Of a stretch of 64,000 nucleotides of DNA, positions 1,334 to 35,629 are shown in pieces. The translations under genes and the position numbers were made by a program. Source of the stretch: Candidatus Latescibacterota bacterium (GTDB lineage: Bacteria; Latescibacterota; UBA2968; UBA8231); contig OY730476.1 in the NCBI GenBank assembly GCA_963422735.1, positions 1,952,001 through 2,016,000 of the forward strand, read 5' to 3'. The notes under the pieces were generated by a model. That model worked only from the letters and a program-made list of their open reading frames with translations, ran no database searches and had not been told where the DNA came from. Within the stretch, counting starts at the first letter, position 1; each line of letters begins with the position of its first letter.

Positions 1334-2695
1334 TTATTGAGTAAATTGGGTCACATTGGCGATGCCACCCGGCTGGGTCAACGCATAGACAATTAGGTTC
1401 ACTCCGAACTGCAACCCGCGCTCTCGTGCATCGGCCAACGGATCTCCCCAGTACCAACTAACATTTAGGTCGCTAAAAACCACCGCAACCCGACCGCGCA
1501 GTTCCAACATCTCCAAGTCGAAAACATTGCCAGCGGGTGCGCCGCCCATAGGCGGACCATCGGGGAAATCCCAGAAGCTGTAGTAGAGCTCGTGGCTCTT
1601 GGGCACTTTCTGCCACTTAGAGCCGTCGCTACCTAGCACCAGCGGATCTTTCATCAGAGCCTTGAACTGGCGATCAAACGGAGTACCCGAAACCCCGGCC
1701 TCCTTGCCTTCAAGCCCGTTCTCAGCATCGCTTTGGCGAATTTCCTCAGCATAAAGGAAACCACCGTTCTTGAGATATTCGCCTAGGTTGGTTTTCTCTG
1801 TATCGCTGATCTGTAAGACGGCATCGTTGCCCGTCACATAAATCATGGGGGCGTTCATGATGCGCGGATCCGAAAATTCCAAGGTCGTGCCCTCAATTCG
1901 GGCATTGATTTGGGTATGGTCGCGCATATAGCGCATCAACTCCTCTACCGCTGTTGGGAACCGATCTCTGTTCTTGTCTGCGATATCGTAGTCAATGACC
2001 GTCATGTTAAAGAAGCCGCGGATATTGCGTTTATTTTCTGGATCCTGAATCAAGATCGCTTGGTAGCGGCCGATGTCCAGGTCGCCGACGTTGAGCAATT
2101 CATGCCTCAGGCTCAGTGCCTCTTGCACCGGGGCCGACGTTTCGCCCAGTTCGATCATCGCGACCTCGTCGAAGGCCAGCTCTTCGGCTTTGGCACCTGA
2201 AAAGGCACCCAAAACCTGCGTACCAGGCAAGACCGAACTCAGGAGGTCGCTACCTACCGCGCTAACATCGGCTATAGCCGATATATCCTGTGGCAAGTCC
2301 GGTGGTGCCATCGACTGGAGCTTCTCCATCTGAACTTCGGATATCTCGGGACGCTTGGCTAGATCGAAGTTCTTTTCGAGAATTGGCGGAGGAGCGCGGA
2401 AAATGATTAGCTCCTCCTTTCTCTCTGCTTCGCCAATGCCAAAGAGATAATCATAAACGAAGACGCCAGCGTGAATGGCTACCGAGAGCACAAAGGCCAC
2501 GCTCATGCTCATCCGACGACCGGTGGTAGCCGTATATAGGGCGTATAGCAGCACCCCGGCACCCGCCAAACTAGCGGCGATCACTACCCACTTGGACAGG
2601 ATAAAAAGTACGTGAATGAGCAAGGCCGCGCCGACCGCTATATAGGCCGTTTTTTGGCGCTGAGCCTTTACTGCTTTCTTATACTCGTCTACCAC
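1334..2695 (-). CDS. Membrane-anchored DUF4159-domain protein with TonB/TolA-like S-x3-H helix and Pro-containing linker
   Basis: Three N-terminal hydrophobic segments, the last containing LSVAIHAG, then FRAPPP. The C-terminal ~200 aa has a DUF4159-like pattern (PMIYVTG...LGEYLKNGGFLYAEE...HELYYSFWDF...GRVAVVFSD...FGVNLIVYALT). Confidence 0.7.
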   Translation of the reverse strand: MVDEYKKAVKAQRQKTAYIAVGAALLIHVLFILSKWVVIAASLAGAGVLLYALYTATTGRRMSMSVAFVLSVAIHAGVFVYDYLFGIGEAERKEELIIFRAPPPILEKNFDLAKRPEISEVQMEKLQSMAPPDLPQDISAIADVSAVGSDLLSSVLPGTQVLGAFSGAKAEELAFDEVAMIELGETSAPVQEALSLRHELLNVGDLDIGRYQAILIQDPENKRNIRGFFNMTVIDYDIADKNRDRFPTAVEELMRYMRDHTQINARIEGTTLEFSDPRIMNAPMIYVTGNDAVLQISDTEKTNLGEYLKNGGFLYAEEIRQSDAENGLEGKEAGVSGTPFDRQFKALMKDPLVLGSDGSKWQKVPKSHELYYSFWDFPDGPPMGGAPAGNVFDLEMLELRGRVAVVFSDLNVSWYWGDPLADARERGLQFGVNLIVYALTQPGGIANVTQFTQ

Positions 2696-2732
2696 AGTTC
2701 TTCCCCCTCTTGGAAGAGCCTAGAAACCTCAT

Positions 2733-3140
2733 TCAGTTGCGCTGTGGTTCCGTGGCGATGACCTGATCGACGACGCCCACTTGGCGAGCAATATCCATGA
2801 TCTGGACGATTTGCCCGTGCGTGGAGCGCTCGTCTCCCTGGATGATAATCATCGTGGTGTTGTCCAGCAGTTGTCTCTTCGCCTGCAATTCCTCTTTGAG
2901 GGTTGCAAAGGTCACCGACTTGTGGTTCAGCTTCATGTTGCCGTCCTGATCCACGACGATAAAAAGGTTCTCCTTCTCCGGAGCCTGAGCCTCTTCGGCC
3001 TCGGGCAATTTGATATCCAAACCCGGAGTAATGGCGAACACAGCGGTCACCATGAAGAAGATGAGTAGCTGAAAGACCACGTCAATCATCGGCGTTAGAT
3101 CGGGCATGGTCAGTTCTTTTTTTTCTACTCTCTCAGCCAT
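2733..3140 (-). CDS. exbD: ExbD/TolR family biopolymer transporter
   Basis: DLTPMIDVVFQLLIFFMV transmembrane motif with the conserved Asp, and C-terminal IQGDERSTHGQIVQIMD. Confidence 0.93.
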   Translation of the reverse strand: MAERVEKKELTMPDLTPMIDVVFQLLIFFMVTAVFAITPGLDIKLPEAEEAQAPEKENLFIVVDQDGNMKLNHKSVTFATLKEELQAKRQLLDNTTMIIIQGDERSTHGQIVQIMDIARQVGVVDQVIATEPQRN

Positions 3141-3170
3141 CTATCTCATGCCTCCCTAAGAAGGCCGCCC

Positions 3171-3824
3171 TTAGGCAGCCTGCGTGCCTTGCCAGCGGCG
3201 CAGTAGAGCGTCCACAAAGCCGTGGCCGTATGCTTCAAACTCCACTGCCTTGCCCGTGGCGCGGTTGCTAAAGTACGTGAAGATGGCAATTGAAGGCACA
3301 GCGATCACCAGACCGGTAACTGTGGTGATCAGCGCTTCGGAAATACCTGCGGCGACGATCGTCGGCTCACCGAGACCTTTTTCCGCAATGCCTTCAAAGG
3401 CGTTGATCATACCGTTGACCGTGCCCAGCAGACCGAGCAACACCACGGACTTGGACACGAAGTCGATAACGGCCAGATACCGTTCCAGATACCCTAAGGC
3501 GGCGCGTTCAATTGTGCCATTCATTTCCTCGCGCATCTCCTCCATCGTGCGTTGCTCTCGCGACAAGTGCTCAAAGCGTTCGATCCCCCCGCCGTACACC
3601 TCGCCTTCGAGCTTGCCGACCTCAGCGCAGTACTCCTTGAGCTGGTCGATGGAAGCCCCCGAGTCTATACGTGCGTTGACGTCGTTGGTGATTTCGGCCA
3701 ATTCATCCTCGGAGCGCAGCCGTGCATAAGTCCAGATGCGCTCGAGAAAGAACGCAATGGAAAGCATAGACCAGAGCCCTAAAGGATACATGAAAGGTCC
3801 GCCTTCTCGAAAAAGTTCAATCAT
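3171..3824 (-). CDS. exbB: MotA/TolQ/ExbB proton channel family protein
   Basis: GGPFMYPL...ER N-terminus, LLGLLGTVNGMINAF and GISEALITTVTGLVIAVP motifs; directly upstream of exbD. Confidence 0.93.
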   Translation of the reverse strand: MIELFREGGPFMYPLGLWSMLSIAFFLERIWTYARLRSEDELAEITNDVNARIDSGASIDQLKEYCAEVGKLEGEVYGGGIERFEHLSREQRTMEEMREEMNGTIERAALGYLERYLAVIDFVSKSVVLLGLLGTVNGMINAFEGIAEKGLGEPTIVAAGISEALITTVTGLVIAVPSIAIFTYFSNRATGKAVEFEAYGHGFVDALLRRWQGTQAA

Positions 3825-3866
3825 TTTCTTTATCCCTCCTTAAGTTAGGACGCAAAGAAATCAAAG

Positions 3867-6800
3867 TTAGAGGACGCGAGCTTCCTGCATTACTTCTAGC
3901 TGCTCTCTGGCATAGTCCACCTGCGTCACGTACTTGGGGTTGTCGCCATAGTTGTCGACGACTTCTTGAAAGACGGCACCGGCTTGGCGAAATTCCTCTT
4001 GGGCCATATAGGCGGCACCGATGTTGACCAGTGAATTGACGGCCTGGTCGCTCTTGGGGTACTTCTGCTGTACTTCCTTGAAGATCGCCATTGCCTCGTC
4101 GTAATTCTTCTCAGCTAAGAGATTTTCGCCCGTTGCATAAAGATTATAGGCGTCTATCTCAGCCAAATGCCCGAGCAGGGTCCTTGCCTTTTTTGGCAGC
4201 GCTCGATCTTGGGCAATCAGCTTGTCAGAGGGAAAACGCTCCAAGAAAGTCTGGTAGCTCTCGGTAGCCTTCTCGTAATCCTTGAGGCCGTAGTAGTAGT
4301 CTCCGAGCGTAAATTGGCTGCGTGCCCCATAAGTACCATCGGGATATTCAGCGACGATCCGCTCGAAAACCGGCACCGCTTCTTCCTTGCGGTCGAGGTT
4401 GATCAGGCACCAAGCCTTGTTGTAGAGCGCATCATCCACATGGCTCGACTTAGGATAGCCCTTAATGATTCGGTCATAGAAGACCATGGCATCTAGGAAG
4501 TTCTGGTTTTTGTCCTCTATGCCACTCCTGTTGGTCATGTTAAACAGGGCATCGCCAGCGCGAAAAAGCGCCTCAGACGCATAGCGGGACTGCGAATACT
4601 TGTCTGCTAGGCTAGCAAAAACATCGCTGGCAGCGCGCCATTTACCCATCCGATAATGCGCCCAAGCATCGTAGTAATAGGCATGTACAGCACGCTCGTC
4701 TTCGGGATATTGGGTGTAATAGGCATTGAACGCCTTTGACATCGCTGGTAGCACTTCGATATTGCCGTTAGCCGATAGCCTGTTATAGGCTACGCCGATT
4801 TGGAACTGGGCATTTTTGGCCCAAGCAATCTGTGGGTAGTTTTCGATAATGGTGTTATAAGTGGCAATCGCTTGGACAAACTGCTCCGACCTGTAGAAGC
4901 AATTGCCTTGTACAAAGAGCGCGTTGGCAATGCTCTCGGCATTGATGGCCAAGTCAATTAGCTCCTGAGCCGCCTCAATACTCTGCTGAAACTTATCGAG
5001 TTTGAAGTAGGCATTGGCCAAGCGAACGAGTAAGCGCTCCCGGTCTTCGCTAGAGGTAGTAGTAGCCAACATCTCCTCATAGATGCGCACCGCTTCCTCT
5101 GGATTGCCCTTCTTTTCTGCCATTGAGATTTTCTGCAGCCGCGCCGAACGCACCAAGCTCTCGTCTCCTGAAGCAATGACCTCGTCCAGCAGCTTCTCCG
5201 CTTCGTCGTCATTGCCTTCCGCAGAGTACGAAAGTGCCATCGAGAAAGTGACCTTTAGCTGCATCGCCTTGGGGATCTTGGTATCCAATAGCCACTTGTA
5301 ATCGATCAGCGCACGGTCGTAACGGCCCGAATAGTGGTAGGCCAATGCACGGCCGTAGCGGGTGTCGCGAATGACATCGCTTTCTGGGTACTCTCCAAGC
5401 ACCATGGTGTAGCGATCAACTGCGTCGACATAGTTTTTATTGTTGAGGTCGAGTTGGGCCATCTGGAAATGGGCCCTAGCCTCCAAGTCGCGGTCGCCAG
5501 TCACACCTTCTAGCAATTGATTGAGCAGCACACGCCCCTCAGCGATGCGATCTTGGGAAATGTAGATATTGGCCGCCTCAATCAGCGCGGCGATGTACGT
5601 CTCTCGGGCATCGCGGCCAACCTTGGAAAAAGCAGTGATGGCCTCGTCTTTCCGACCTTCATCTCGGTAGAGAATACCAAGGCCATAGTAAGCATCAGCC
5701 GTATGCTGCGTATCCTGATAGTTCTCCGTTATGGCCTTGTAGGCTTCAATGGCCTCCTCAACCTTCTGCTGCTCGTAGTTGAGCCGGGCGATGCGCAATA
5801 AACACAACGGCGCTTGGTCTGAGCGGGGGAAGTTATCCACTGCCTGTGTGTAGCTTGCGATAGCCTGCTCCGCCACGCCGAGTTTTTCGGCAGACCAGCC
5901 TGCACTATAGAGTGCTGCGGAGCGCAAACCCGTATCGCTATCTGGGTAATCCACCAGCAGTTTTAGATAGTCTTCACGGGCAGCGGCGTAGTCTGCGGCG
6001 AAGTACTTGGCTTCGCCTTTCTGATACTGAGCGTTGGCTGGATAAGGAGTATCCCCGTAGAGTTCAATTACTTGGTTGTAAGCAGTCCACGCCTCGTCGA
6101 ACTTATCCCACTCCATGTAGTTGTCGCCAATTCTCATTTGCACCTTGGCCTTGTAAAAGCGCTCTTCGGCAGTTTCTTGGGCGGCAATCAACTCTTGGTA
6201 GGCTTGCTCGAACTGGTCTGTTTTGCGGAAGATCTCAGCGACGCGCAACGAGGAGGTCTCAAAGAGCTGCCGATAGTTTTCAAAGTCGACATTCTTACCT
6301 TCGCGAAACGAGCCACGCAAGAGTTCAAACATCCGATCGTAGAGGTTGCGCACATCGCGGTAGGCTTCAATCGCCTCCACATCGCGCCCCATCTTGTCGT
6401 AGGCGTTGGCCTTTAGGTAGAGGGCTTGGGCAATGACTGGACTATTGGGATACTTGTCGAGGACTATCTGGGTCATATCAACGGCTTTAGCGTACTCGCC
6501 CTTTTCATAGAGCGCACTGGCGATGCGGAACTGGGAATCCGGCGCATAGCGATCTTGCGGATAAGCCGCCAACATGCCGTTGAGCGTTTCTATGGACTGG
6601 TCATATTCTTTTGTGTTAAACTCGCTCCAGCCCGCGTAAAAATACGCCTTGCCGGCCTCTTTCGTCTTGGGAAACAACTCGACATAGCGCTTGTATTCCT
6701 TTGCTGCCTCGCCGTACTCTTTGGCGAGGAAGCGGGTCTCGGCGACTTGGAACTGCACCAATGACCTGAAAGCCTCGGCTACGCTCCCTAAGTCAATAAC

Positions 6801-7112
6801 TTGGCGATAGGCTTCCACCGCTTTTTCATGTTGCCCGCTCTTTTTGTAGGCATTGCCTAGCTGATACCAAGCCGCCGCAACTACGGGCAATTCCAGTTCG
6901 TTGCCAAACACCACCCGTACACTGTCGGTGCGCACGGCCTTGCTATTGAACTTGACGATCTTTGAATACTCGATGATCGCCCCTTCAAACTCGCCAAGGG
7001 CGTAGAGAGATTGTCCGGCGTCAAAACTGGTCTTCAGATTTTGCGGCACCGGTAGAAAAAGGCTAGCTCCTAGCCCCAATCCCAGCGCGATGAGTCCAGC
7101 CCAGACCGTCAT
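3867..7112 (-). CDS. Large periplasmic TPR-repeat protein (BamD/CpoB-like repeats), 1081 aa
   Basis: N-terminal hydrophobic segment, then many repeats of type A..Y..G...Y...Y.EA...Y...L..YP.S; AAGGAG RBS upstream of the ATG. Confidence 0.88.
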   Translation of the reverse strand: MTVWAGLIALGLGLGASLFLPVPQNLKTSFDAGQSLYALGEFEGAIIEYSKIVKFNSKAVRTDSVRVVFGNELELPVVAAAWYQLGNAYKKSGQHEKAVEAYRQVIDLGSVAEAFRSLVQFQVAETRFLAKEYGEAAKEYKRYVELFPKTKEAGKAYFYAGWSEFNTKEYDQSIETLNGMLAAYPQDRYAPDSQFRIASALYEKGEYAKAVDMTQIVLDKYPNSPVIAQALYLKANAYDKMGRDVEAIEAYRDVRNLYDRMFELLRGSFREGKNVDFENYRQLFETSSLRVAEIFRKTDQFEQAYQELIAAQETAEERFYKAKVQMRIGDNYMEWDKFDEAWTAYNQVIELYGDTPYPANAQYQKGEAKYFAADYAAAREDYLKLLVDYPDSDTGLRSAALYSAGWSAEKLGVAEQAIASYTQAVDNFPRSDQAPLCLLRIARLNYEQQKVEEAIEAYKAITENYQDTQHTADAYYGLGILYRDEGRKDEAITAFSKVGRDARETYIAALIEAANIYISQDRIAEGRVLLNQLLEGVTGDRDLEARAHFQMAQLDLNNKNYVDAVDRYTMVLGEYPESDVIRDTRYGRALAYHYSGRYDRALIDYKWLLDTKIPKAMQLKVTFSMALSYSAEGNDDEAEKLLDEVIASGDESLVRSARLQKISMAEKKGNPEEAVRIYEEMLATTTSSEDRERLLVRLANAYFKLDKFQQSIEAAQELIDLAINAESIANALFVQGNCFYRSEQFVQAIATYNTIIENYPQIAWAKNAQFQIGVAYNRLSANGNIEVLPAMSKAFNAYYTQYPEDERAVHAYYYDAWAHYRMGKWRAASDVFASLADKYSQSRYASEALFRAGDALFNMTNRSGIEDKNQNFLDAMVFYDRIIKGYPKSSHVDDALYNKAWCLINLDRKEEAVPVFERIVAEYPDGTYGARSQFTLGDYYYGLKDYEKATESYQTFLERFPSDKLIAQDRALPKKARTLLGHLAEIDAYNLYATGENLLAEKNYDEAMAIFKEVQQKYPKSDQAVNSLVNIGAAYMAQEEFRQAGAVFQEVVDNYGDNPKYVTQVDYAREQLEVMQEARVL

Positions 7113-7170: not shown

Positions 7171-8106
7171 TTAGAATTCATAAGCAAAGGAAAACCGGTG
7201 TGCGCCATTGGTCTCGGTCAGATCCAAGCCGATGTCATAGGCATAGTCGAACACCAACTGATTCCACTGATAGCCCAACCCCGCATTCAAGCCCCCTCCG
7301 GCGTCCTCAGACAACAAACGACGACCCCCCGCCCGCAACAGCAACCCCTCCACCAACTGCGTCTCCCCACCAACAACCAACCCCTGATCCGAGCCCTCCC
7401 CCGTCAAGTCCCGACGCACGTATTGAACCGACACCAACGACTGACTGCTCAGACGATACCCCACCCCCACATGCACATCCATCGGCAACGTACCCGCATC
7501 CGCGTCCCCTGCAACCTCGCCATACGCCACATTCGGCTGGTTGATATTCTTCAACAACACCCCCACCTGTGCCCCTTGCACCGGACTCTGCCACAGCAAA
7601 CCCAAATCCAAGCCTACGTTGCCCGCACGCTGGTTCGACAGCGGATCAGGCCGACCCTCATCGTCGGGAATTGACCCCACACTCCAAAACAGATACTTGG
7701 CCGACAACCCCACCTGCAGCCGACGCTGCACCTGATACGACAGCGACACAAACGCCCCGTTCTCGCTCATCAGCGACGAGCCAATCCGCTCATAACCCAA
7801 ACCCAAGCCCATCCGGTCACCCAAAGGCTGTGCATAGGAGACCACGTGCTGACCCAGATCGTCGCCTTCAATACCCGCATACAAAAGCGATACATTGGTG
7901 TAGGCCACCTGACGCTGAGCCACCTGACCCAACCCGGCCGGATTGGCAAACACGGCATCCGCATTGTCGGCCACCGCCACAAAGCTGTTGCCCAACCCCT
8001 GGGCCCGTGCCCCCGAACCCACATTCTGAATGTTGACGACCCCGTCACTTGATTGGGCGACGAACAGCAAGCCGACTAAAACACTAAGCATTTTCAGAGA
8101 TTTCAT
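7171..8106 (-). CDS. PorV/PorP(SprF)/FadL-like outer-membrane beta-barrel protein
   Basis: Signal peptide, the motif GSGARAQGLGNSFVAVADNADAVFANPAGL, alternating beta-strands and C-terminal HRFSFAYEF; AGGAGG RBS. Confidence 0.78.
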   Translation of the reverse strand: MKSLKMLSVLVGLLFVAQSSDGVVNIQNVGSGARAQGLGNSFVAVADNADAVFANPAGLGQVAQRQVAYTNVSLLYAGIEGDDLGQHVVSYAQPLGDRMGLGLGYERIGSSLMSENGAFVSLSYQVQRRLQVGLSAKYLFWSVGSIPDDEGRPDPLSNQRAGNVGLDLGLLWQSPVQGAQVGVLLKNINQPNVAYGEVAGDADAGTLPMDVHVGVGYRLSSQSLVSVQYVRRDLTGEGSDQGLVVGGETQLVEGLLLRAGGRRLLSEDAGGGLNAGLGYQWNQLVFDYAYDIGLDLTETNGAHRFSFAYEF

Positions 8107-8141: not shown

Positions 8142-8888
8142 CTAGTTTGCCTTAGCGACTCTAGGAACGACCGTACCGTCCTTGTAAATCTTGCCAATAT
8201 CTCGGACGAATTTATAGGAAATATTGGTGGTCTCCACCGGCTCGTTGCGAAAGTCAAATCGCAGGATTACATCGAGTACTTGGACTTCGATATCACTCAC
8301 GTCGGGGTGGAGCACGGGAAAAACGACGAATCCCTCTGCCTCTTGGCCGCTGAAGATCTCCTCGTCTTTGAGCATCGTCCGCCGCAGCAAGTCGCGGCGC
8401 TCTTGGTAGCGGGCATATTCGTTGCCTCTATAACCTATGGCATAGGCGCGATAATACGTGTCGAGCTGCTCAAAGTTGAGGCTCCAATACTCGCGCTTAT
8501 TGCTCGCTTTGACGACAATCTTGCTCGGATCAATTTTGACTTTGGGGTAGGCATAATTCTTAATGCTGAGACGGAAGACAGTGAATCTCTGTTTTTCTTC
8601 GTCTGTTCCCCAAAATATCGTGTTGCCAAAGGTATAGGGATTTGTAGACTTAGGACCCGCTTGGGAATTGTTAAAAAACTGGCGATTCAATTCCTCGTCA
8701 GTCATCGGTTTGAGTCGCACTTCAAAGCGGTCCTGGGCAAAAGTCAGGGTCCCGTCATCTGCCACGCTGATAGACGAGGTCTGATCTTGGCCGGGCTGCA
8801 ATGTACCTGTGTAATAACTATATCCACAGCCCAGCACACCCGAGCCGATAATCAAGGTCAAGAATAATATTCGTGTGAAATTCATCAT
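8142..8888 (-). CDS. Lipoprotein of unknown function, paralog A
   Basis: Lipobox-like VLG|C. Shares VADDGT, PMTDEELNRQF, NPYTFGN, RFTVFR, YPKV and RFDF motifs with 25197..25955. Confidence 0.85.
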   Translation of the reverse strand: MMNFTRILFLTLIIGSGVLGCGYSYYTGTLQPGQDQTSSISVADDGTLTFAQDRFEVRLKPMTDEELNRQFFNNSQAGPKSTNPYTFGNTIFWGTDEEKQRFTVFRLSIKNYAYPKVKIDPSKIVVKASNKREYWSLNFEQLDTYYRAYAIGYRGNEYARYQERRDLLRRTMLKDEEIFSGQEAEGFVVFPVLHPDVSDIEVQVLDVILRFDFRNEPVETTNISYKFVRDIGKIYKDGTVVPRVAKAN

Positions 8889-9838
8889 TCAGAAACTCCT
8901 CGGTGGTAAAGCTCTGAGTGCAAAGAGGCTTTCAAGCGCCCCCACGACCTCGGTTCCACAGCCGTAAAAGTACCCTCTAGCGGCATCAGGATCAAGTCTG
9001 TGAAGCGATCGGCAAAGCGATACGAATTGTGTTGGCCCGAAAGCGACCACTTAGCATCAAAAAGCTCTGAATGCACATCGAAGTCATTGAACTCTACGTT
9101 AAAACCAAGAATTTCACCTTCCCGCAAGAGGTGCTCTTCACTTTGAAAGACCGCATTGATATCGACGCGATCAAAGGGCACGAGCATGACTTCGTAGCTC
9201 GTCACTCCTTCGCCTCCCAAGACACCTACAAACTCGACCGCCGCCCTAGTGTAAGGACCGTTGGATAGCGCGTACCAAGCAGCGGCTGAAAAATTAACAA
9301 AAAAATCCTTGTCGGGCGACGGGCCAGCCAAAACGAAATGATTGGCCTTAGCCCCGTTGCGCCGCCTTTGCTCTTCGTGGCTCAACTCAGTGAAATTTGC
9401 GAATTGTCCACCTGAGTGATCCGCATCGATAAACAATTCTATCGCGTCGTCTTGGAAAAGCACCATGGCACTACCGGCGGAACGATCAATCTGGTGTATA
9501 TCATCGCGAACTTGAGCGGCGATGTAGAGCCTGTTCTCCGATTTATTCCACCCAACCATGAGACGGGCAGCAAAATCATCCGAATCGCTCGCCTCAACTT
9601 CTGGACTAATCAGGTCGTGAAATTGACTCGTTAATATGGCGTAGGAGTTACCTACAATTTCCCAATCTCTCAAATCCCCGTCAATGACGGGAACTAAGTG
9701 ATCGGGAAATTGAAAAGCTCTGTAGGCTACTCCTTCGGGGTAATGACCCAAAACCGGTTTAGCCGAGCCTACTGCTATCTGTAGCACCAAAGCTAAAAAA
9801 AACAACCACGACCAGCACCTCGGCCAACGTCTTCTCAT
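8885..9838 (-). CDS. Secreted CBM9/DOMON-like sugar-binding protein with C-terminal WGxLK tail
   Basis: Start moved to ATG 9838, because the TTG at 9898 is the -35 box of a promoter. Signal peptide; PVIDGDLRDW, LYIAAQVRDD, DAIELFID and GFNVEFND are CBM9-like; tail TAVEPRSWGRLKASL. Confidence 0.75.
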   Translation of the reverse strand: MRRRWPRCWSWLFFLALVLQIAVGSAKPVLGHYPEGVAYRAFQFPDHLVPVIDGDLRDWEIVGNSYAILTSQFHDLISPEVEASDSDDFAARLMVGWNKSENRLYIAAQVRDDIHQIDRSAGSAMVLFQDDAIELFIDADHSGGQFANFTELSHEEQRRRNGAKANHFVLAGPSPDKDFFVNFSAAAWYALSNGPYTRAAVEFVGVLGGEGVTSYEVMLVPFDRVDINAVFQSEEHLLREGEILGFNVEFNDFDVHSELFDAKWSLSGQHNSYRFADRFTDLILMPLEGTFTAVEPRSWGRLKASLHSELYHRGVSE

Positions 9839-9869
9839 CCGTTTTTTGATGTCTTTCAAATCGAGATGT

Positions 9870-19725: not shown

Positions 19726-19726
19726 T

Positions 19727-28762: not shown

Positions 28763-31700
28763 TCAATAGACCACGTGTACGAGGCGCGTCAATTCGCTAT
28801 CTCGATCGTCGGCCTCCACTTTGATCTGACAGAGATATATCCCCGGCGGTACGACCTGCCCCCCTATATCCCGTCCATCCCACACAAACGCCTGCGTCCC
28901 TACCTTACCACCGGTCCCCGAGCTTTGGCCTTGGCCTACTAAGCGTCCACCCAAATCGTAAAATGCGACTTCCAACGGCCGTTCCTCCTGTACCTTTAAT
29001 AAAACAAAATGCACCAAAAGCTGGTCGTTGACCCCGTCGCCATTGGGCGTGAAAACCGACGCCATCCCCACGTCTTGGATCAAAGATCCCGACAAGGCCA
29101 TTAGGCTGACTTGCGCCGTCGAAGAATCCACCAACTCGGTCGCATCCTTATCGGTGGTATCAACCCGTTGGAATACCCTCTCATCCGAGTCCGAAGACCG
29201 CACGAACGACGTAAACTCAATGCCCTCGCGGAAGCTCTGCGACTCAAACTGTACCTCGATGAGCGCGTGCTGGCCAGTCGGCAAATCGGCGTTGAGCGAA
29301 AACGGGAAGCGCACCCAGATCGAATCCTCACCCGTCGCCATGCGCTCCAACACCTCGCCATCCGCGTCGCGGAAGACCCCGTCGTCGCCCGGGGCAAAGG
29401 CGCGATCAAACTCCGTAGTCGTCGCCGAGGTCAGCACTTCCTCCGGGTTGAGGAGCGAGGGTGTCTGAGCGATGGCGACCTGCCCCAAGCGCACACCTGT
29501 CAAGTGTGCAGCACGCGGCGCGGCGACCAGCACTTCGTTAAAGCCGGCGCGCACCGTCGCGTCAGTCGGGTCGGGCGTAGCGGCGCGGATGAAATAAGCG
29601 AATTGCTGCGGCGCGAGCGGATCGACATTGCGCGGCGGGGCGTAGTCCGAGGTCTGGACACCCAAGTTGCTCGGAACGCGCGTCGCTCCCTCGTCGCTAA
29701 GGAGCGCCAACTCGCCGACCAGTTCCAGCGCCAGCGGCGGTGCTAGCTCAATGCTCAGCCTGCGGATGCGCGCTGTCTTAAATGGGTCCTCTGAGGAGAT
29801 ATTGAGCCGCACCTGGACGAACTTGCGCGGATTGGGCGAGGTGATCGTCGCCTCGTTGACGCCGTTGGTGGGTAGATAGCTTTTGCTCCACTCGCTCCAG
29901 CCGACGAAGGCCAACTCGCCGTCCTTGTCAAAGCTCAAACGCGGTGCCCGGCGCAATTTCTTGCCATCTTCGTCGACGAGGCCATCGCCGTCATTGTCAA
30001 TGAGGTCAATCGGATCCTCGTCGTTGGCCCCATCGCCATCGTCGTCCTTGCGCGAGGCGTGCCTCTTGCTGTCGGGCAGAGTCTGCCAAATCTCCCAAGC
30101 CATCCACTCCAAGGCTATCTCGTCGTAGATAACTTTCGTCACTTCCTCGCGCTCTTCGCTGCCAGCGATGGTGGTGACTTGGTAGTAGGTAAAATTGGTG
30201 TCGGTCTGGTCAGAGGTGCGGGTCTGTATCTGCAAGCGGACATCCGGGTGGCGATCCAGCGGCTCAATCCGCTCAATGAATTGACCGGTGAGCGGATCGG
30301 TGTCGCGGATTAGAATGTCGCCATCCCAAGCGATGCGCGGCAGGGTCTTGCGGATGAAATTGCCGCGCGAATCGGTCAGCGAGATCGGCGGCGAGTAGGC
30401 CCACACGCTCACCGGATACCCCTCGCCGTAGAGTTGGATCTCGGCCATGGTCGCCAACGCCCCATATCGGCCCGACTGATTCCCGGTGACGTCGATATCG
30501 CGGACCTGCAGAAAGCGGATCTTGCGGGGGGCAAAGGCTTCTTGGAAAATGCGCACTACCGGCGTGTGATTGTCAATGTGCTCCTCGCTAATGATATTGT
30601 CCCACTTGAGCCCCTCTTCGAGTTGGATAAAATCTTCGCGGGCTTTCATGCTCAAGGGTTTGAGCAGGGTGCCATCGGAGACCAGAATGCCCGGCCCCAA
30701 GAAGGCCCCCTTGTGGCTCTGGTTGATGCGCTTGTTGACCACCGAAAGATTGTCAACCCAGAACACGGCCCCTAAATCGTACCAAGCCGTGCCCTTGACG
30801 TAAACTGGCGACCATGTATTGGCAGTCCACTGAGAGTCGTAAAGCCCGTCGGTAGCCAGTTGGGGGGCACCTAAGCCGCCGTTTTCAAACGAAGCACCGC
30901 CGCGCTTTTCGGGCTGCAGCGAGTAGTTGTCGCCCTTGGCCCAGACCTGAACCTCGGCGATGCGGGGGACCTCCTTGACGTAGTAGAGGATCAGCCCGCG
31001 CTGTTCCTCGGGTAGGGTTTGATATTTTTCACGGGCGGTCTGGTTGGCATCGTCTTGGATCTCGACGAGCAAACCGCCGGCCGTCTGGCGCTGATAGACG
31101 AGCGCACCGCGCTGTTCCTCGGGCAGTGCTTCATAAGCGAGGCGCGCCTCTTCGCCAGCACCCAAAAAGGAATCGCGCCAGAGATCCGAACTCGTCGCCT
31201 TGACGCGCACATACTGGATGAAAGCTCCACTGATATCGGGCAAACCGTCCAAGTCCCAGTCGGCCTTGTCTAGGGGCGAGAGGGGGAAGGTCATCTGCAC
31301 GTAACGACCTTCAGTACCGGGTACGGCGACGAGTTGCACACCATCCGCCCCTACAACACCCGTCGAAGCTTGGGCTATGAGTGAAAACTGGAGATTGTTG
31401 CCCAAGGGAAAGGGAAAGCGCTCACCCATCGAGGCGAAGAGCGCGAATGCCTTGACCGGTTGGCCGAGAAACTCGGCCTCGAACTGACTGACAGGGAAAA
31501 CGATCGTCAGGCTATCGGCGAAAACCAGCCGCCCTAGGTCAATTTCAAGCTCCCACTTGTTGAGCCCGTCAAGATGGAAGTCTCCGGGATCGCTCAGGCG
31601 GCTTGCAAAACTGATCGGCGTGTCCGGCTCCCAGAACGTGCTCAAGTCGTCGTCGAGGACATTGTTGGCCAAGACGTCGTTGGATTTGGCGGTCGCACCG

Positions 31701-32017
31701 CCGATAGTTAGCTCGCCGGCGGCGCGGATTAGGTCGGGATAGGTGAAGTCGTTAGCCGTGGGAGCGACATTGATATTGCGGCGGAAAAACACCGGCCGCA
31801 ACCCGTTGGCTCCGACCTCGAAGATATCCGCTTCGCCGACCAACACGTTCAAACTGGAGACCAGATCGTTCTGATATATCCAGTTTTCCCAGTGAGAAGC
31901 CCGATCCACGAGGAGCGAATTGCCTTGAAGGCGATAGGCATCACCGTCCTGGGCTAGACAGAAATTCGGCATAGATACTACGACGAGGGGCACCCCCCAC
32001 TTTAGCAGCCGCTTCAT
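28763..32017 (-). CDS. Large secreted protein with T9SS type-B/FlgD-Ig-like C-terminal domain (paralog 2)
   Basis: Signal peptide; discoidin-like segments (DDDLSTFW, DGLYDSQW); two DDDGDG..DED repeats; C-terminus VFTPNGDGVND...YDLGG...WDGRD..G.VVPPGIY...VVY. Confidence 0.85.
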   Translation of the reverse strand: MKRLLKWGVPLVVVSMPNFCLAQDGDAYRLQGNSLLVDRASHWENWIYQNDLVSSLNVLVGEADIFEVGANGLRPVFFRRNINVAPTANDFTYPDLIRAAGELTIGGATAKSNDVLANNVLDDDLSTFWEPDTPISFASRLSDPGDFHLDGLNKWELEIDLGRLVFADSLTIVFPVSQFEAEFLGQPVKAFALFASMGERFPFPLGNNLQFSLIAQASTGVVGADGVQLVAVPGTEGRYVQMTFPLSPLDKADWDLDGLPDISGAFIQYVRVKATSSDLWRDSFLGAGEEARLAYEALPEEQRGALVYQRQTAGGLLVEIQDDANQTAREKYQTLPEEQRGLILYYVKEVPRIAEVQVWAKGDNYSLQPEKRGGASFENGGLGAPQLATDGLYDSQWTANTWSPVYVKGTAWYDLGAVFWVDNLSVVNKRINQSHKGAFLGPGILVSDGTLLKPLSMKAREDFIQLEEGLKWDNIISEEHIDNHTPVVRIFQEAFAPRKIRFLQVRDIDVTGNQSGRYGALATMAEIQLYGEGYPVSVWAYSPPISLTDSRGNFIRKTLPRIAWDGDILIRDTDPLTGQFIERIEPLDRHPDVRLQIQTRTSDQTDTNFTYYQVTTIAGSEEREEVTKVIYDEIALEWMAWEIWQTLPDSKRHASRKDDDGDGANDEDPIDLIDNDGDGLVDEDGKKLRRAPRLSFDKDGELAFVGWSEWSKSYLPTNGVNEATITSPNPRKFVQVRLNISSEDPFKTARIRRLSIELAPPLALELVGELALLSDEGATRVPSNLGVQTSDYAPPRNVDPLAPQQFAYFIRAATPDPTDATVRAGFNEVLVAAPRAAHLTGVRLGQVAIAQTPSLLNPEEVLTSATTTEFDRAFAPGDDGVFRDADGEVLERMATGEDSIWVRFPFSLNADLPTGQHALIEVQFESQSFREGIEFTSFVRSSDSDERVFQRVDTTDKDATELVDSSTAQVSLMALSGSLIQDVGMASVFTPNGDGVNDQLLVHFVLLKVQEERPLEVAFYDLGGRLVGQGQSSGTGGKVGTQAFVWDGRDIGGQVVPPGIYLCQIKVEADDRDSELTRLVHVVY

Positions 32018-32052: not shown

Positions 32053-34536
32053 CTAATACGCTACAGAAACGATACGCGTTCGAGCATTGCCCTCATTATC
32101 GGCTTCGACCGAAATGCGCAGTACATAGAGGCCCGGCGGCACGATCTGTCCGCTATCAGCGCGGCCATCCCACTGCTGCGAATACCCCCCCGACGACAGA
32201 TGGCGCTCAATAAGACGCACGCACCGACCGTTCAAATCGAATATCTCCAGATGCACCGATTTCGGCGTCAGCAGGCGCTGCACATCGAAGAGCACGGTCA
32301 TCTCGTCGTTGACGCCGTCGCCATTGGGCGTAAAAGGATTGGGATCAGCCTTAAAATTGCTCACCAGGTTCTCGCTCTGCGCCGAAATGTCGGCGATGAC
32401 AGCCAGAGAGTTGCGGTCCGAGAGCTGGTCCGTCGCTCCAAAGTCCACCACATCGTTGCCCTCCGCCCTCTGTGGCAGAAAGAAGGCCAGCGTATCGAGC
32501 GCACCCTCGCCGCCTGCGACCGCTAGGATACCACTACGGGTAAAACGCCGCTCCACACCGGCATCCAAGGTATCGAGGAAGGCATTGGCGGAGAAGTCGG
32601 TGCGGAAATCGATGACCCGGCCTCGGAAGCGGACTTTCACCAACGCATCGCGCACTTGTCCGTCCTCGGCTGGGCTAATGGTCGGGAAACCGACGACGAA
32701 CTGGTTATCGGCGATGTACAATTCTTGAAATTGCCCTTCGCCAGCCTCGCCTTCGCCGAGCCCGACGTGGGAGAGAACTTGGACTTGGCCATCGCCCATA
32801 TCCACTTCCATCCCCTCAATCTCTTCGGTGCGTGCCGGCGTAAAAACCTGTAGGCGATTGAAGCCGTTGTTCTCAGCCCCTAGGGAAGCTTTCAAGGCCA
32901 GAACGAAAGAGGTATCACGGCCGGCGATTACATCCACTGCCGGGGCGATCTCACCGAGTACCTGATCGGTGATCTGTGGGGCGGAGTACTCAAGGCGCAT
33001 GTTACGGATAACCGTAGCCGACTCCGGTGACTGGCTCAGAAACTCTACCTCAATCTCGATAAAGGGCCGCCCACTCGGCGCATTAACCAATTCGCCATTG
33101 TTGGCTACTTGGGCACTGCTCCAGAACTCGAGGTCGGGTTCGATCCGGTGCCTCACGCTGACCGGCAATCCTATGTAGTCCTCGCGGGTCAGGCGGATCG
33201 CCAGGCGATCCTCGGGCAGGGCGGCATTGAAAATTTCGCGGGCCTCTGTGTTGAATTCCGATGAGTCCAGATACACTTCTTGGCCCTGGGTCGAGGAACC
33301 GAGCCGTCGGTCGACGATAATTGCCCCCTCACTCCACTCCACTTCGCGGTCGTAGTAGTTGACGCGGAAAAACACATCAGGCTCGGCAGTGAATCCCGTC
33401 CGCACACGCACGATGGCACTCGACTTAGTGGGATCGCCGATCTTTTTCTCATCCCAGAAGATCCGCCCCAGAGTCGCTGGGGGCACTGGTAGTGCATTGG
33501 AGGTATATACCGCTTCGGGCATGAAACCGTCGGCGAAAAACTCCATTTCAGCCAAGTCGTAATCCAGCGGAGTCTGAAAATCGAAGCGCGCGTAGCGCAT
33601 TTTGGCGGGCGGGTCGAACACTACTGCAATAGTATCTTCCACGTTGACTGGCACACTCGCTTCGGGGACGAAGATCGGAAATGTCTCTTCTATCCTGATG
33701 AACTTGGGAAAGCCTAATGGCCCTGTGATCGGATCTTCGAGACTGAGGCCGGCAATCACCGTCTCGGTCCCAGGCAAGCCGCGAAAGAGGGTGTAGGCGG
33801 AAACGCGCACCGGCTCTTCGAGGCTGGGGTAGAGGCGAAAAAGCCGGATTGGAAAGTAGTGTCCCAAGTCAGTATAGAGGATCCATTGCTGGGTAACGTC
33901 CTGTCCCACCCGATCAATGCGTTCAAAATGAGTCAATGGATCGCCGTCGAAGACGCGCCCCAAGCCCTCCTGCAAACGTATGCCGGTCAAGGCGTTTTCA
34001 AATCTGCCGAGGGTTGTGAGGTTCAGACTCTTGTTGTACTTATAGCCGCCGGGCGGACGGGGAAAAGACTCAGCCACGTTGATCATGGCCTCGATCTCGG
34101 TGATACCGGCCCGGCGCAATAGGTGGACCCCCTCTAGGCTGCGCGGGAAGGGGCTCCAGCGAGGAACCAGCACCGTGCCCTCCTTGACGATCGTACCATC
34201 CTCGCGCTCCGCATCAGTCAGTGCCACCACATCGGCCCTAGCCACATTGAGCGAAAAGGCAAAGAGGATGGAGTTAATCGCCGCATCTATTTCGTCGGAA
34301 GTTAAAGCAAGGGGAATTTCGGGGACAGGTACTGTGCGCACGGGCGCGAGGGGTCCAATGCCGTTTTCATAACTTTCGAGATCTATTAGTTCAATAAAGG
34401 TATTCTCTGAGACCAAACTCTGTTTGACGTCGCCCCAGGTGGAATTGCCAGGAATGGAGAATAGACGCAACTCCGCGGCGGCGTTTACCACCAAACCCGA
34501 CAAAACCAGTGCGGCGACACAAAGCCCGATTCTCAT
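32053..34536 (-). CDS. Large secreted protein with T9SS type-B/FlgD-Ig-like C-terminal domain (paralog 3)
   Basis: Signal peptide NAAA|E; C-terminus PNPFTPNGDGVND...FDLNG...WDGRADSGQIVPPGLY...VAY; core motifs shared with paralogs 1 and 2. Confidence 0.85.
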   Translation of the reverse strand: MRIGLCVAALVLSGLVVNAAAELRLFSIPGNSTWGDVKQSLVSENTFIELIDLESYENGIGPLAPVRTVPVPEIPLALTSDEIDAAINSILFAFSLNVARADVVALTDAEREDGTIVKEGTVLVPRWSPFPRSLEGVHLLRRAGITEIEAMINVAESFPRPPGGYKYNKSLNLTTLGRFENALTGIRLQEGLGRVFDGDPLTHFERIDRVGQDVTQQWILYTDLGHYFPIRLFRLYPSLEEPVRVSAYTLFRGLPGTETVIAGLSLEDPITGPLGFPKFIRIEETFPIFVPEASVPVNVEDTIAVVFDPPAKMRYARFDFQTPLDYDLAEMEFFADGFMPEAVYTSNALPVPPATLGRIFWDEKKIGDPTKSSAIVRVRTGFTAEPDVFFRVNYYDREVEWSEGAIIVDRRLGSSTQGQEVYLDSSEFNTEAREIFNAALPEDRLAIRLTREDYIGLPVSVRHRIEPDLEFWSSAQVANNGELVNAPSGRPFIEIEVEFLSQSPESATVIRNMRLEYSAPQITDQVLGEIAPAVDVIAGRDTSFVLALKASLGAENNGFNRLQVFTPARTEEIEGMEVDMGDGQVQVLSHVGLGEGEAGEGQFQELYIADNQFVVGFPTISPAEDGQVRDALVKVRFRGRVIDFRTDFSANAFLDTLDAGVERRFTRSGILAVAGGEGALDTLAFFLPQRAEGNDVVDFGATDQLSDRNSLAVIADISAQSENLVSNFKADPNPFTPNGDGVNDEMTVLFDVQRLLTPKSVHLEIFDLNGRCVRLIERHLSSGGYSQQWDGRADSGQIVPPGLYVLRISVEADNEGNARTRIVSVAY

Positions 34537-34620
34537 TTCGTTAATCCCCAGTAAAGTTTGTGATCTCGCCTAGGTTGATGGACATTGGGAACGAGGGTTA
34601 TACGATACAGGAGCAATACA

Positions 34621-34650
34621 ATAGTAAAAATAGATAAGCGAAAATTTCAA
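34621..34650 (-). promoter_or_regulatory. Candidate sigma70 promoter for the operon starting at 34536
   Basis: Minus strand reads TTGAAA-N18-TACTAT in an AT-rich spacer, just downstream of a terminator. Confidence 0.45.
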
Positions 34651-34654
34651 ATGC

Positions 34655-34688
34655 AAAGAGAGGGAGGATGATTCCCCCCTCTCTTTTT
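34655..34688. terminator. Intrinsic terminator downstream of the 34724 gene
   Basis: Stem AAAGAGAGGG (34655-34664) / CCCTCTCTTT (34677-34686) with T-runs on both strands. Confidence 0.65.
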
Positions 34689-34723
34689 CTTTGCACAGGT
34701 CAAACAACAGAATGTTCGGTCAC

Positions 34724-35629
34724 TTACTCGCTCAGCGAAGCCTTGATGCGGCCCCAAGAATCTTCTTCGACCGCTGTTTCATCAATGTCACCACCTAGGC
34801 CGACCAAGCGAGCATCGACAAAGCGTTCGGCAAAACGCCACGTTGCAGCCTGACCAGATATGGTGTGGAAGGCACGATCCTGGCCCGGAGCCTGATCCGT
34901 ATCCGGCGTCGAAATCTGGTACCCAATGATATTACCTTCGACGAGAGGCGTCGCGATGCTGTCGTCGGGACTGTTCCAGATCAGATCGTCGAAAGGCGTA
35001 CAGAAAAACTCAATGATGCTAACCGTTGGCCCGTCGCCAATAGAGACGCCACCACCATCGGCATAGGGTAGATCGTTGACCCACTCAGAACCTGCACCCA
35101 AATAGAAAACGTGACGCCCTGAAGGATCATCCGCGACGGCGATGTACTGCTGCGCCGTGCGATTGTTGTTCAGTTTCTTCTCTTCTTCAGTCCACTCCTC
35201 GTTGGCCGAACCAGTGTAGTCGCCTCCAGTGTGGTCACCGTCGAGCATAACTTCGATGGCCTCATAATTCCAAGGACTACTCCCGTCGTACTCCCTGCCG
35301 AAGTACACGTTGTCTATACGCTCCATGGCGAACCAGATCGTGCCTCCATTGCCGTTCCAGCCTGTCCAGATACGGTAGTCAAGGTCCGCCGGATCGTACT
35401 GGGCACCGTCGCCCACTGTGGGATCCTGATAGAGATCAGTAGGGAGAAACTGGGGGTCACCCATTACATCTTCCCAGTCCTCGACGGTGCCATCATTAAA
35501 ATCAAGGTCAGCCAGATCCGCATCGGCAATCTCAAAGAGCAGGTAAACCTTTTCACCAATATGTGCATTAGCACCGCTTGTCAGGCCCAATATCAGACCC
35601 ATAGCGACAAGGCCATATAGACGTTGCAT
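34724..35629 (-). CDS. Secreted acidic CBM9/DOMON-like protein with C-terminal WGxIK tail
   Basis: Signal peptide ANA|H; DGTVEDW, TGWN, EAIEVMLDGDHTGG and FAERF motifs shared with 8885..9838; tail TAVEEDSWGRIKASLSE. Confidence 0.78.
   Translation of the reverse strand: MQRLYGLVAMGLILGLTSGANAHIGEKVYLLFEIADADLADLDFNDGTVEDWEDVMGDPQFLPTDLYQDPTVGDGAQYDPADLDYRIWTGWNGNGGTIWFAMERIDNVYFGREYDGSSPWNYEAIEVMLDGDHTGGDYTGSANEEWTEEEKKLNNNRTAQQYIAVADDPSGRHVFYLGAGSEWVNDLPYADGGGVSIGDGPTVSIIEFFCTPFDDLIWNSPDDSIATPLVEGNIIGYQISTPDTDQAPGQDRAFHTISGQAATWRFAERFVDARLVGLGGDIDETAVEEDSWGRIKASLSE

Follow-up and report, generated by a model that had tools for sequence, protein, structure and literature searches.

We analysed a window of 64,000 nucleotides, positions 1952001-2016000 of the 4,953,052-bp single contig (C1) that makes up the 95% complete genome of a Candidatus Latescibacterota bacterium. 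A 34-kb region of this window combines an ExbB-ExbD (ExbBD) motor, outer-membrane barrels, lipoproteins and secreted proteins whose C-terminal domains (CTDs) are of the kind seen in type IX secretion systems (T9SS). Our results point to three units, side by side, of an outer-membrane system that is specific to the lineage and repeated many times, the first of these units being a probable Ton/Tol-like transducer of the proton-motive force. According to this reading, to which we give a probability of roughly 0.4, the CTD proteins exit through SprA, and units made of ExbBD and a protein ending in DUF4159 energise the barrels in a TonB-like manner. The region is probably not a replacement secretion machine, since the pore and the sortase of an ordinary T9SS are encoded elsewhere in the genome.

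The 34-kb region is made of three neighbouring units of a repeated system: a motor operon (1334-9898, minus strand), an accessory operon (10302-21448, plus strand) and a cassette (21423-35629, minus strand). It is not a single export machine, as had been proposed in the original prediction, which was made from the letters of the window alone. The genes listed in that prediction were all present at their places according to the open reading frame (ORF) listing, the Pfam and NCBIfam scans and the translations on which our gene calls in the window rest, and, as it had stated, no scanned window ORF matched GldK, GldL, GldM, GldN or SprA. To its list we add a second CBM9-like protein, so that these proteins form a further paralogous pair (8885-9898 and 34724-35629, 28.6% identical), and a GDSL/tetratricopeptide repeat (TPR) gene of the cassette (21423-23441). 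The gene set is massively paralogous in the genome and hence far beyond chance. The motor operon comprises seven genes, separated by gaps of 30-58 nt with one 4-nt overlap:

8885..9898, minus strand: CBM9-like secreted protein, 337 aa (Pfam CBM9_1 26.2 bits, cut-off 23.4); its stop and the start of the lipoprotein gene share 4 nt
8142..8888, minus strand: beta-sandwich lipoprotein, 248 aa, lipobox LGC; its family is common to motor operons and cassettes
7171..8106, minus strand: PorV/PorQ/PorP-superfamily outer-membrane barrel, 311 aa (NF033709 77.1 bits, PorP/SprF TIGR03519 45.6, PorQ 44.8, all below the cut-offs of 90, 90.55 and 220)
3867..7112, minus strand: TPR protein with an N-terminal signal or anchor, 1081 aa (Pfam TPR families)
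3171..3824, minus strand: ExbB/TolQ-type proton channel subunit, 217 aa (Pfam MotA_ExbB 81.1 bits, cut-off 22.9); one of the four ExbB genes of the genome
2733..3140, minus strand: ExbD/TolR-type subunit, 135 aa (Pfam ExbD 98.6 bits, cut-off 25.4; NCBIfam TolR 67.9 and ExbD 51.6, both below cut-off)
1334..2695, minus strand: putative TonB-type anchor, Pro-rich linker and periplasmic DUF4159, 453 aa (Pfam DUF4159 92.1 bits, residues 235-439)

The N-terminus of the DUF4159 fusion consists of a His-containing membrane helix, LSVAIHAGVF, followed by a Pro-rich linker, which, going by the TonB motif, we take to be a TonB-like anchor. This helix and the linker RFxAPPPILKKSFxLAKRPExSEVQME are conserved in the fusion orthologs of other families. 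DUF4159 was the sole Pfam match of the protein, with no match to a TonB_C domain, and a profile of 19 fusions matched a single PDB entry, 4i66 (E 1.2e-19). The invariant columns of DUF4159 contain no Cys, which would argue against an amidotransferase-type nucleophile. For the motor subunits the NCBIfam equivalogs of ExbB, ExbD, TolQ and TolR all remained below cut-off, the TolQ and TolR models ranking first. The 1081-aa TPR protein matched YbgF-type units (299 bits in 10 stretches), BamD-type units (227 bits) and PorW/SprE (117.6 bits, below the cut-off of 250) in NCBIfam. The barrel at 7171-8106, which has a signal peptide and ends in FSFAYEF, is placed by its scores in the wider PorV/PorQ/PorP superfamily only. 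A second copy of this barrel, 95-98% identical, lies alone among housekeeping genes (adenylyl-sulfate kinase, pyrH) at C1:708518-709525 (L039:4518-5525), and two congeners (G120 and G090) also carry two copies each.

The motor operon is conserved. The profile of 19 fusions, searched against species-representative genomes, gave 402 relatives, from which 80 loci were kept, 70 of them orthologous. Considering only loci with enough upstream flank and genes on the same strand, the fusion was preceded by ExbD in 63 of 64 loci, by ExbB in 59 of 60 and by the TPR gene in 40 of 43; further upstream were the PorV-like barrel (35/38), the lipoprotein (28/35) and the CBM9-like gene (28/34), counts that overstate independence as many of the genomes are close kin. 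The same core was found in 14 of 20 regions taken from 20 genomes of several families. The linkage of ExbB, ExbD, the fusion, the TPR protein, the PorV-like barrel and the lipoprotein that had been proposed is therefore borne out as an operon whose order is kept across Latescibacterota. In two families, f9 and f10, the slot of the PorV-like barrel is taken by a member of the cassette's 916-aa barrel family, and an arrangement of paralogs lacking ExbBD, with three barrels, a TPR protein, a DUF4159 fusion and a lipoprotein, was also recurrent. The homologs and related loci are titled as Candidatus Latescibacterota metagenome-assembled genomes, some being labelled Gemmatimonadetes or Gemmatimonadota. 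Logan contigs from four RNA libraries of four studies, 90-99% alike, cover 29-30 of the 30 bins of the motor operon and some of them bridge gene junctions, which hints at expression of the operon in relatives; the X2 and X6 bins at 7340-7625 that have no cover carry no meaning.

The distribution of the system was followed in 121 Latescibacterota genomes, grouped in families designated f1, f2 and so on:

DUF4159 fusion at E <=1e-10: 74 genomes in total; f1 40/40, f2 0/29, f3 0/13, f8 1/5 (weak)
916-aa barrel family: 71 genomes; f1 40/40, f2 0/29, f3 0/13, f8 0/5
ortholog of the PorV-like barrel of the window: 44 genomes; f1 30/40, f2 0/29, f3 0/13, f8 0/5
SprA: 120 genomes; f1 40/40, f2 29/29, f3 13/13, f8 5/5

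The fusion and the barrel family co-vary, and SprA is kept in families devoid of both. This result is the main reason to doubt that the motor serves as engine of the T9SS in the phylum, and to see it instead as an energiser of the barrels; the pattern indicates that the motor travels with the barrels and not with the outer-membrane core of the T9SS. In the five f8 genomes, where PorU was over cut-off in four, the profile search found only stand-alone DUF4159 proteins with signal peptides (233-246 aa) and no ExbBD within 1.5 kb. The 42 genomes of f2 and f3 had no PorU over the cut-off of 420 bits (NF033707); they had only a PorU-related frame of ~1,900 aa, reaching at most 279 bits among the matches listed. 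These frames (e.g. in G039, G050 and G053) match positions 5-737 or ~260-737 of the PorU model, and a first look with the PorU/CTD model gave 10-29 candidates in f2/f3 genomes vs 30-195 in f1.

In the genome under study, the genes for SprA, PorU and a PorV-family barrel are located outside the window. The SprA model (TIGR04189, cut-off 200) matched three stretches of one 2140-aa frame at C1:2394944-2400385, with 611.5 bits together; this gene adjoins lptF/lptG, and among the 27 neighbouring ORFs scanned (LptF/LptG, SelA, FeoB and others) no T9SS partner was identified. PorU (NF033707, 632.3 bits) is encoded at C1:2053531-2056707, next to a barrel with 237.3 bits to NF033709, over cut-off, and 159 bits to the PorV equivalog NF033710, below its cut-off of 250; both genes are found 36 kb beyond the window on its right side. 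With these three components present, the CTD proteins need no private translocon or sortase. On the other hand, at E <=0.001 the genome had no match to GldL (TIGR03513) or to GldM (TIGR03517 and PF12081 GldM_1st). GldN had no match in the genome either, the best match to GldK (65.3 bits, cut-off 350) was at the level of the FGE-sulfatase domain, and no ORF of the genome exceeded the PorW/SprE cut-off, the best one reaching 136.5 bits. The canonical T9SS that the genome carries elsewhere is thus recognisable by half: pore, shuttle and sortase are there, and motor and ring were not detectable.

The same holds in the phylum. SprA was matched in 120 of the 121 genomes (115 over cut-off) and PorU in 116 at E <=1e-40 (71 over cut-off), while GldL and GldM were over cut-off in none, with three and one marginal matches, respectively. 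These negatives agree with passages of the review PMC9389320, according to which GldLM is restricted to Bacteroidetes. Our literature search found no paper joining Latescibacter* with T9SS or type IX secretion.

Two side observations concern these components. The ORF with the best PorW/SprE score encodes a 919-aa TPR protein (C1:109052-111811; L178:9052-11811) located between carB and pyrD; it matches model positions 26-391 and 546-715 and ends in a TonB_C domain (36.4 bits), so that it may be a lead to T9SS coupling in a phylum without GldLM. Among the nine ORFs with an FGE-sulfatase domain, the fold of GldK and GldJ, four are at most 5 kb away from a cassette or motor gene, vs 16.6% of the genome (C1:4500927-4501637, 2607296-2607727, 4766147-4766662 and 1248408-1249088; two Pfam-confirmed, with 235.4 and 187.1 bits), numbers too few to weigh.

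The cassette holds the second barrel of the region:

34724..35629, minus strand: CBM9-like secreted protein, 301 aa, with signal peptide; first cassette gene, no Pfam match
32053..34536, minus strand: CTD protein, 827 aa (CHU_C 32.8, FlgD_ig 27.8 bits; cut-off 27 for each)
28763..32017, minus strand: CTD protein, 1084 aa (CHU_C 25.4, FlgD_ig 22.1 bits, both below cut-off); many paralogs
25966..28716, minus strand: predicted outer-membrane beta-barrel, 916 aa (AlphaFold2), of a Latescibacterota-centred family without a Pfam or NCBIfam name
25197..25973, minus strand: lipoprotein paralog, 258-aa ORF, with lipobox; 45-47% identical to 8142-8888, sharing 8 nt with the end of the barrel gene
23445..25130, minus strand: SurA/PrsA-like parvulin peptidyl-prolyl isomerase (PPIase) lipoprotein, 561 aa (Rotamase_2 62.2, Rotamase 55.2 and Rotamase_3 51.7 bits, over cut-off; SurA_N_3 18.6, below its cut-off of 27.2)
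21423..23441, minus strand: GDSL-like/TPR protein, 672 aa (Lipase_GDSL_2 48 bits); last cassette gene, starting 3 nt after the end of the PPIase gene

The PPIase has a lipobox of its own (LAGC) and is of the SurA/PrsA parvulin kind, with its PPIase domains over cut-off and a weak match of the SurA-type N-terminal domain. The GDSL/TPR protein has two paralogs in the genome, 2.1 and 3.7 kb from PPIase genes, and the CBM9-like protein is 52.6% identical to a paralog at genome position 3716492.

The 916-aa protein had no Pfam or NCBIfam match, and a PDB profile search gave nothing below E 0.43. Of 8000 candidates scored in a word-indexed search, 1024 were relatives at E <=0.001; none of the best 120 of them has a Pfam domain and all of their given names are 'hypothetical protein'. 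AlphaFold2, run with a 46-row alignment, modelled a barrel of ~30 long strands (pLDDT 72.9, pTM 0.70); confidence is low in the N-terminal 100 residues and in an Asp/Asn-rich insert (~539-630), although both parts have many invariant or near-invariant columns. This insert (~536-630) has invariant N539, D540, D547, D564, D572, N609-N611, D615, N619 and D620, it has no Pfam match and, by its residues, it looks like calcium-binding loops. Foldseek and VIA-align matched the model to generic large barrels, namely the SlpA complex 7zgx (Z 13.7, rmsd 8.8, 402 aligned), MtrB, LptD and ushers, with TM-scores of 0.17-0.25. Among the matches listed there was no SprA-specific one, 6h3i appearing only via its chain F (Z 8.8), and in its own genome the SprA model TIGR04189 matched the true SprA only and never this barrel. 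Therefore, in the matches listed the idea that the 916-aa barrel is a translocon finds no specific likeness to SprA in sequence or in fold, and the protein is best described as a predicted giant barrel of a new family that nothing marks as SprA-like. Fold prediction of the lipoprotein at 8142-8888 gave likewise only generic relatives: the model, a beta-sandwich with a helical insert (AlphaFold2, pLDDT 88.4), resembles other beta-sandwich or uncharacterised lipoproteins (best Foldseek E 1.1e-3; best VIA-align match 4r4g, Z 8.3). The ESM Atlas holds neither of the two proteins looked up in it; their nearest clusters are unnamed Latescibacterota or Gemmatimonadota-labelled ones, and for the barrel the closest cluster that has a name, DUF6029 (0.89), is no more than a lead.

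With these data the reading of the region as a variant T9SS can be weighed. It would make ExbBD-DUF4159, the TPR protein and the PorV-like barrel an energy module for the export or attachment of CTD proteins, via SprA or the 916-aa barrels, in a phylum without GldLM, and we consider it unlikely. This reading gains from the missing GldL, GldM and GldN matches in the genome and the FGE-sulfatase-level match of GldK, from the count of 0/121 genomes with GldL or GldM over cut-off together with the Bacteroidetes-only range given for GldLM in passages of PMC9389320, and from a motor operon in which a PorV/PorQ/PorP-superfamily barrel stands together with a TPR protein that has 117.6 bits to PorW/SprE. 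CTD genes also stand beside ExbBD-DUF4159 operons, and GldLM and ExbBD share the 5:2 motor class, as the same review states. However, SprA, PorU and PorV-family genes lie elsewhere, in housekeeping contexts; f8 keeps SprA in 5/5 and PorU in 4/5 genomes without the fusion (but for the one weak match) or the barrel family; the 42 f2 and f3 genomes keep SprA without the ExbBD-DUF4159 module; the 916-aa barrel, in the matches listed, is SprA-like only in being a large barrel; and the similarity of the TPR protein to PorW is at the level of TPRs. Thus, what stands of the variant T9SS first envisaged is a conserved ExbBD module tied to CTD genes in the absence of recognised GldLM, and what speaks against it is the presence of SprA, PorU and a PorV-family barrel and a motor that follows the barrels. 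It is doubtful, too, that in the lineages with 916-aa barrels the ExbBD-DUF4159 arm took over the energy-requiring release or mounting of CTD proteins onto the giant barrels, leading to a GldLM-free T9SS-type surface proteome; were it so, it would imply a motor swap between two 5:2 machine classes and a new apparatus for outer-membrane display or transport.

The preferred reading, of barrels energised by ExbBD-DUF4159 units, is further suggested by the repetition of the system. Family sizes, obtained by BLAST and iterated hidden Markov models over all ORFs of the genome, were as follows:

CTD ORFs: 143
barrel-family ORFs of at least 800 aa: 34, including 24 paralogs 38-50% identical to the barrel of the window
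lipoprotein family: 17, of which 16 in barrel clusters
CBM9-like family: 31
PPIase family: 33, of which 20 in barrel clusters
PorV-like: 12
DUF4159: 15
ExbB: 4
ExbD: 7

The 34 barrels fall into 23 clusters that occupy 9.0% of the genome. All 23 contain CTD ORFs (75 of the 143 of the genome), 21 contain CBM9-like proteins, 18 PPIases and 14 lipoproteins. Against the 34 barrels of at least 800 aa there are only three ExbBD sets not of the TonB kind, and these three of the four sets stand with the barrel system: in the window, at 1.25 Mb, where the operon order is CTD, PorV-like, 977-aa barrel, TPR, ExbB, ExbD, ExbD, lipoprotein, PPIase, and at 2.31 Mb, in an array where ExbB-ExbD-ExbD is located 645 nt from a barrel 45% identical to that of the window. 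The fourth set is ordinary, with an adjoining TonB_C gene; the genome has four TonB_C matches and 16 receptors with a Plug domain. Same-strand arrays that bring motor operons together with 916-aa-family barrels and CTD proteins occur in this genome as well as in those of other families of the phylum. A gene for an inner-membrane transporter was found in 9 of the 17 clusters scanned or in their 2.5-kb flanks, the gene encoding a DUF6785/6784 protein in five clusters and, in the others, an MFS or SSF protein or an ABC binding protein or permease.

The DUF6785+DUF6784 proteins, of ~650 aa and 9-11 hydrophobic segments, are located at L179:7011-8999, L197:1248-3188, L199:7737-9689, L200:488-2440 and L202:15949-17913, and fragments of them also adjoin the set of ExbBD genes at 2.32 Mb. 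In the inner membrane, these proteins may act as partner of the barrels. A 1048-aa protein with a periplasmic Reg_prop propeller and a sigma-54 activator domain is encoded between two DUF4159 fusions in the module at 0.36 Mb (L034:5292-8438; C1:357292-360438). Sensors of the Reg_prop type are known from hybrid two-component regulators of polysaccharide utilisation loci.

Between the motor operon and the cassette lies the accessory operon:

10302..13049, plus strand: CTD protein, 915-aa ORF (CHU_C 34.8, FlgD_ig 37.2 bits, weak F5/8 type C in Pfam)
13146..15242, plus strand: PMT_2-type membrane glycosyltransferase with C-terminal TPR, 698 aa (Pfam PMT_2 54.2 bits and TPR)
15251..16882, plus strand: FG-GAP/ASPIC protein, 543 aa (FG-GAP_3 167.5, UnbV_ASPIC 71.3 bits)
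16892..19725, plus strand: two TPR proteins, 444 and 500 aa (Pfam TPR families), which would belong to the system by their position only
19550..21448, plus strand: second FG-GAP/ASPIC protein, probably a lipoprotein from an internal Met (FG-GAP_3 136.2, UnbV_ASPIC 59.6 bits; internal MSILAFLVCCLCLACSS)

The glycosyltransferase has five paralogs in the genome (35-37% identity), three of which lie 5-102 nt from a barrel-family ORF, one of these ORFs being a 161-aa fragment; the FG-GAP/ASPIC proteins have ~40 among the matches listed, most of them within a few kb of cassette genes. This recurrence at cassettes suggests that the accessory operon belongs to the same repertoire.

The three CTD proteins of the window have signal peptides, tails of the form TPNGDGxND...WDGRD and AY or VY at the end: TPNGDGINDE...WDGRD...LAY in 10302-13049, whose likely start is an internal Met before the signal peptide, and TPNGDGVNDQ...WDGRD...VVY in 28763-32017. 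Pfam CHU_C and FlgD_ig were over cut-off in two of the three. The NCBIfam CTD models remained below cut-off, with 25.6, 22.6 and 16.3 bits for type B (TIGR04131, cut-off 35) and 16.7 and 16.5 for type A (TIGR04183, cut-off 23). The nearest named ESM Atlas clusters for 32053-34536 combine F5/8 type C with CTD domains. A division of the CTDs into subtypes by the strict motif NGDGxND (38/67 within 8 kb of a barrel vs 15/61 elsewhere) was discarded, as near-variants are common in the rest and no clean split results.

How the parts would work together can be proposed as follows. The CTD proteins would cross the outer membrane by the ordinary SprA, handled by PorV and PorU, all encoded elsewhere. 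At the surface they would assemble with the barrel, the lipoprotein and the CBM9-like protein of a cassette into a substrate-binding complex. ExbB and ExbD would form the inner-membrane motor, and DUF4159, borne on the TonB-type helix and Pro-rich linker, would take the place of TonB's C-terminal domain, so that few ExbBD-DUF4159 units could couple the proton-motive force to many barrels, as TonB does for TonB-dependent transporters. Uptake would be the most likely purpose: the CBM9-like proteins, the F5/8 type C relatives of the CTD proteins and the transporters in the clusters fit a function in binding or uptake.

Several points weigh against this proposal. DUF4159 is a domain without known function, for which our literature search yielded only a Pfam database paper, and its sole solved relative in the PDB profile search is an uncharacterised protein. 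The 916-aa barrel had no Plug or TonB_dep_Rec match in Pfam or NCBIfam and no recognised TonB box, and the AlphaFold2 model is of low confidence over its conserved first 100 residues. In the window the motor operon has a PorV-like barrel, the nearest barrel of the 916-aa type being 23 kb away. Co-variation of motor and barrels rests on related genomes with few independent losses. Transporter genes are common in any genome, and none of the 76 cassette-flank ORFs scanned in 17 clusters matched a glycoside hydrolase or lyase family; no substrate can be named. Contigs from RNA libraries are no proof of transcription, and they do not show where an RNA begins or ends, its strand or its level. The GldL, GldM and GldN negatives come without a positive control, as none of the 14 control genomes carries these genes.

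That the region encodes an adhesin or motility machine appears quite unlikely. ExbBD-DUF4159 would then pull or move complexes of barrel, lipoprotein and CTD adhesins in the outer membrane, in the manner of AglRQS-GltG/J in Myxococcus or GldLM-SprB in Flavobacterium, and the cassettes would be alternative adhesin sets. The parts list, with a TolQR-type motor, TonB-like linkers, a large TPR protein, barrels and lipoproteins, does resemble that of Agl-Glt (described in part in PMC9389320), the tails of the CTD proteins come closer to type B (CHU_C), the form found in gliding adhesins, and some operons have two ExbD genes. Nonetheless, no NCBIfam Glt, Agl or Gld model matched beyond the TPR level, Pfam revealed no cytoplasmic or cytoskeletal partner genes in the motor operon, and the 23 clusters, with their CBM9-like proteins and with transporters in 9/17 of those scanned with their flanks, are a better fit to substrate handling.

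A role in envelope biogenesis is very improbable, whether each cassette is seen as an assembly kit with the motor operon aiding insertion of giant barrels or of a surface coat, or the kit is equated, with just as little likelihood, to a barrel with plug-like lipoprotein as in LptDE plus SurA-like chaperone, BamD/YbgF-like TPR protein and PMT-type glycosyltransferase: SurA-like PPIase lipoproteins in 18/23 clusters, the BamD/YbgF-type units of the 1081-aa protein, LptD and the S-layer protein SlpA (7zgx, Z 13.7) among the best fold matches of the barrel, and PMT_2 glycosyltransferases adjoining barrels are in line with it, but the fold matches are generic (TM-scores 0.17-0.25), the lipoprotein, a plain beta-sandwich, has nothing LptE-like among its listed matches, and 23 kits in one genome would have no obvious reason.

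The remainder of the window contains ordinary metabolism, one TonB-dependent receptor of the ordinary type (55547-58420, with CarboxypepD_reg, Plug and barrel domains) and parA/parB at its end (62654-63998). After the cassette, four minus-strand genes (36002-40519) encode a secreted protein of 305 aa whose tail is acidic, a probable lipoprotein of 231 aa, a 536-aa PMT_2 glycosyltransferase, the second in the window, and a 391-aa PD40 beta-propeller protein (39344-40519) that lies 30 kb from the motor operon; the first three have no paralog in the genome and the PD40 protein has four weak ones.

Compared with known systems, the region shares with the Bacteroidota T9SS its cargo with Ig-like C-terminal domains of the CHU_C/FlgD_ig kind, a genome in which SprA, PorU and a PorV-family barrel (the latter by NF033709 only) exceed curated cut-offs, and a PorV-superfamily barrel and a PPIase among cargo genes. 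It differs in that GldL, GldM and GldN have no match, GldK is matched at the domain level and PorW/SprE below cut-off (136.5 bits at best), and in that the genes of the window lie outside the T9SS core, with an ExbBD-type motor that follows the barrel family and not SprA. With SprA in 120 of 121 genomes and recognisable GldL or GldM in none, the phylum is suited to ask directly how type IX secretion is powered outside Bacteroidota.

Like LptD-LptE, the cassette encodes a very large barrel in a frame overlapping that of a small lipoprotein, and LptD was among the best Foldseek matches, but the TM-scores reach only 0.17-0.20, the sequences are not related, the beta-sandwich of the lipoprotein is a generic one and the barrel exists in 34 copies per genome. 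With the Agl-Glt and Tol-Pal systems the region has in common a TolQ/TolR-like motor, a periplasm-spanning linker, a large TPR protein and barrels with lipoproteins in one locus; in contrast to them, the motor operon had no match above the TPR level to models of Glt (GltD/E/G/J), Agl, TolA, TolB or Pal proteins, the output domain is DUF4159 and the locus is linked to cargo genes of the T9SS type.

A further resemblance is to the Ton system and the SusC-SusD loci. Motors of the ExbBD/TolQR type serve nutrient import, envelope maintenance and gliding through arms of the TonB, TolA or GltG/J type. As in Ton/SusC-SusD loci, ExbB and ExbD exceed the Pfam cut-offs and are accompanied by a linker protein with a TonB-type helix and a Pro-rich stretch, few motors face many paralogous outer-membrane barrels, and these are flanked by lipoproteins and proteins of the carbohydrate-binding type, often with inner-membrane transporters nearby. 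The cassettes are plausibly the counterpart, in this phylum, of polysaccharide utilisation loci, although, in contrast to SusC/SusD loci, no glycoside hydrolases were found among the ORFs scanned. Unlike in the Ton system, DUF4159 stands where TonB has its C-terminal domain, and all four TonB_C matches in the genome lie elsewhere; the cassette barrels have ~30 predicted strands; neither these nor the PorV-like barrel matched Plug or TonB_dep_Rec; a 1081-aa TPR protein and a PorV-like barrel are included in the motor operon; and an ordinary Ton system with 16 Plug-domain receptors exists besides. The 34-copy barrel family, with no relative in Pfam, NCBIfam or the PDB, represents a large unexplored part of the cell surface, and its clusters hold half of the T9SS-type cargo genes. 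An ExbBD motor with an arm ending in DUF4159 would represent a new TonB-like output domain, which the operon links with a giant TPR protein and with barrels that are PorV-like or of the novel ~30-strand kind.

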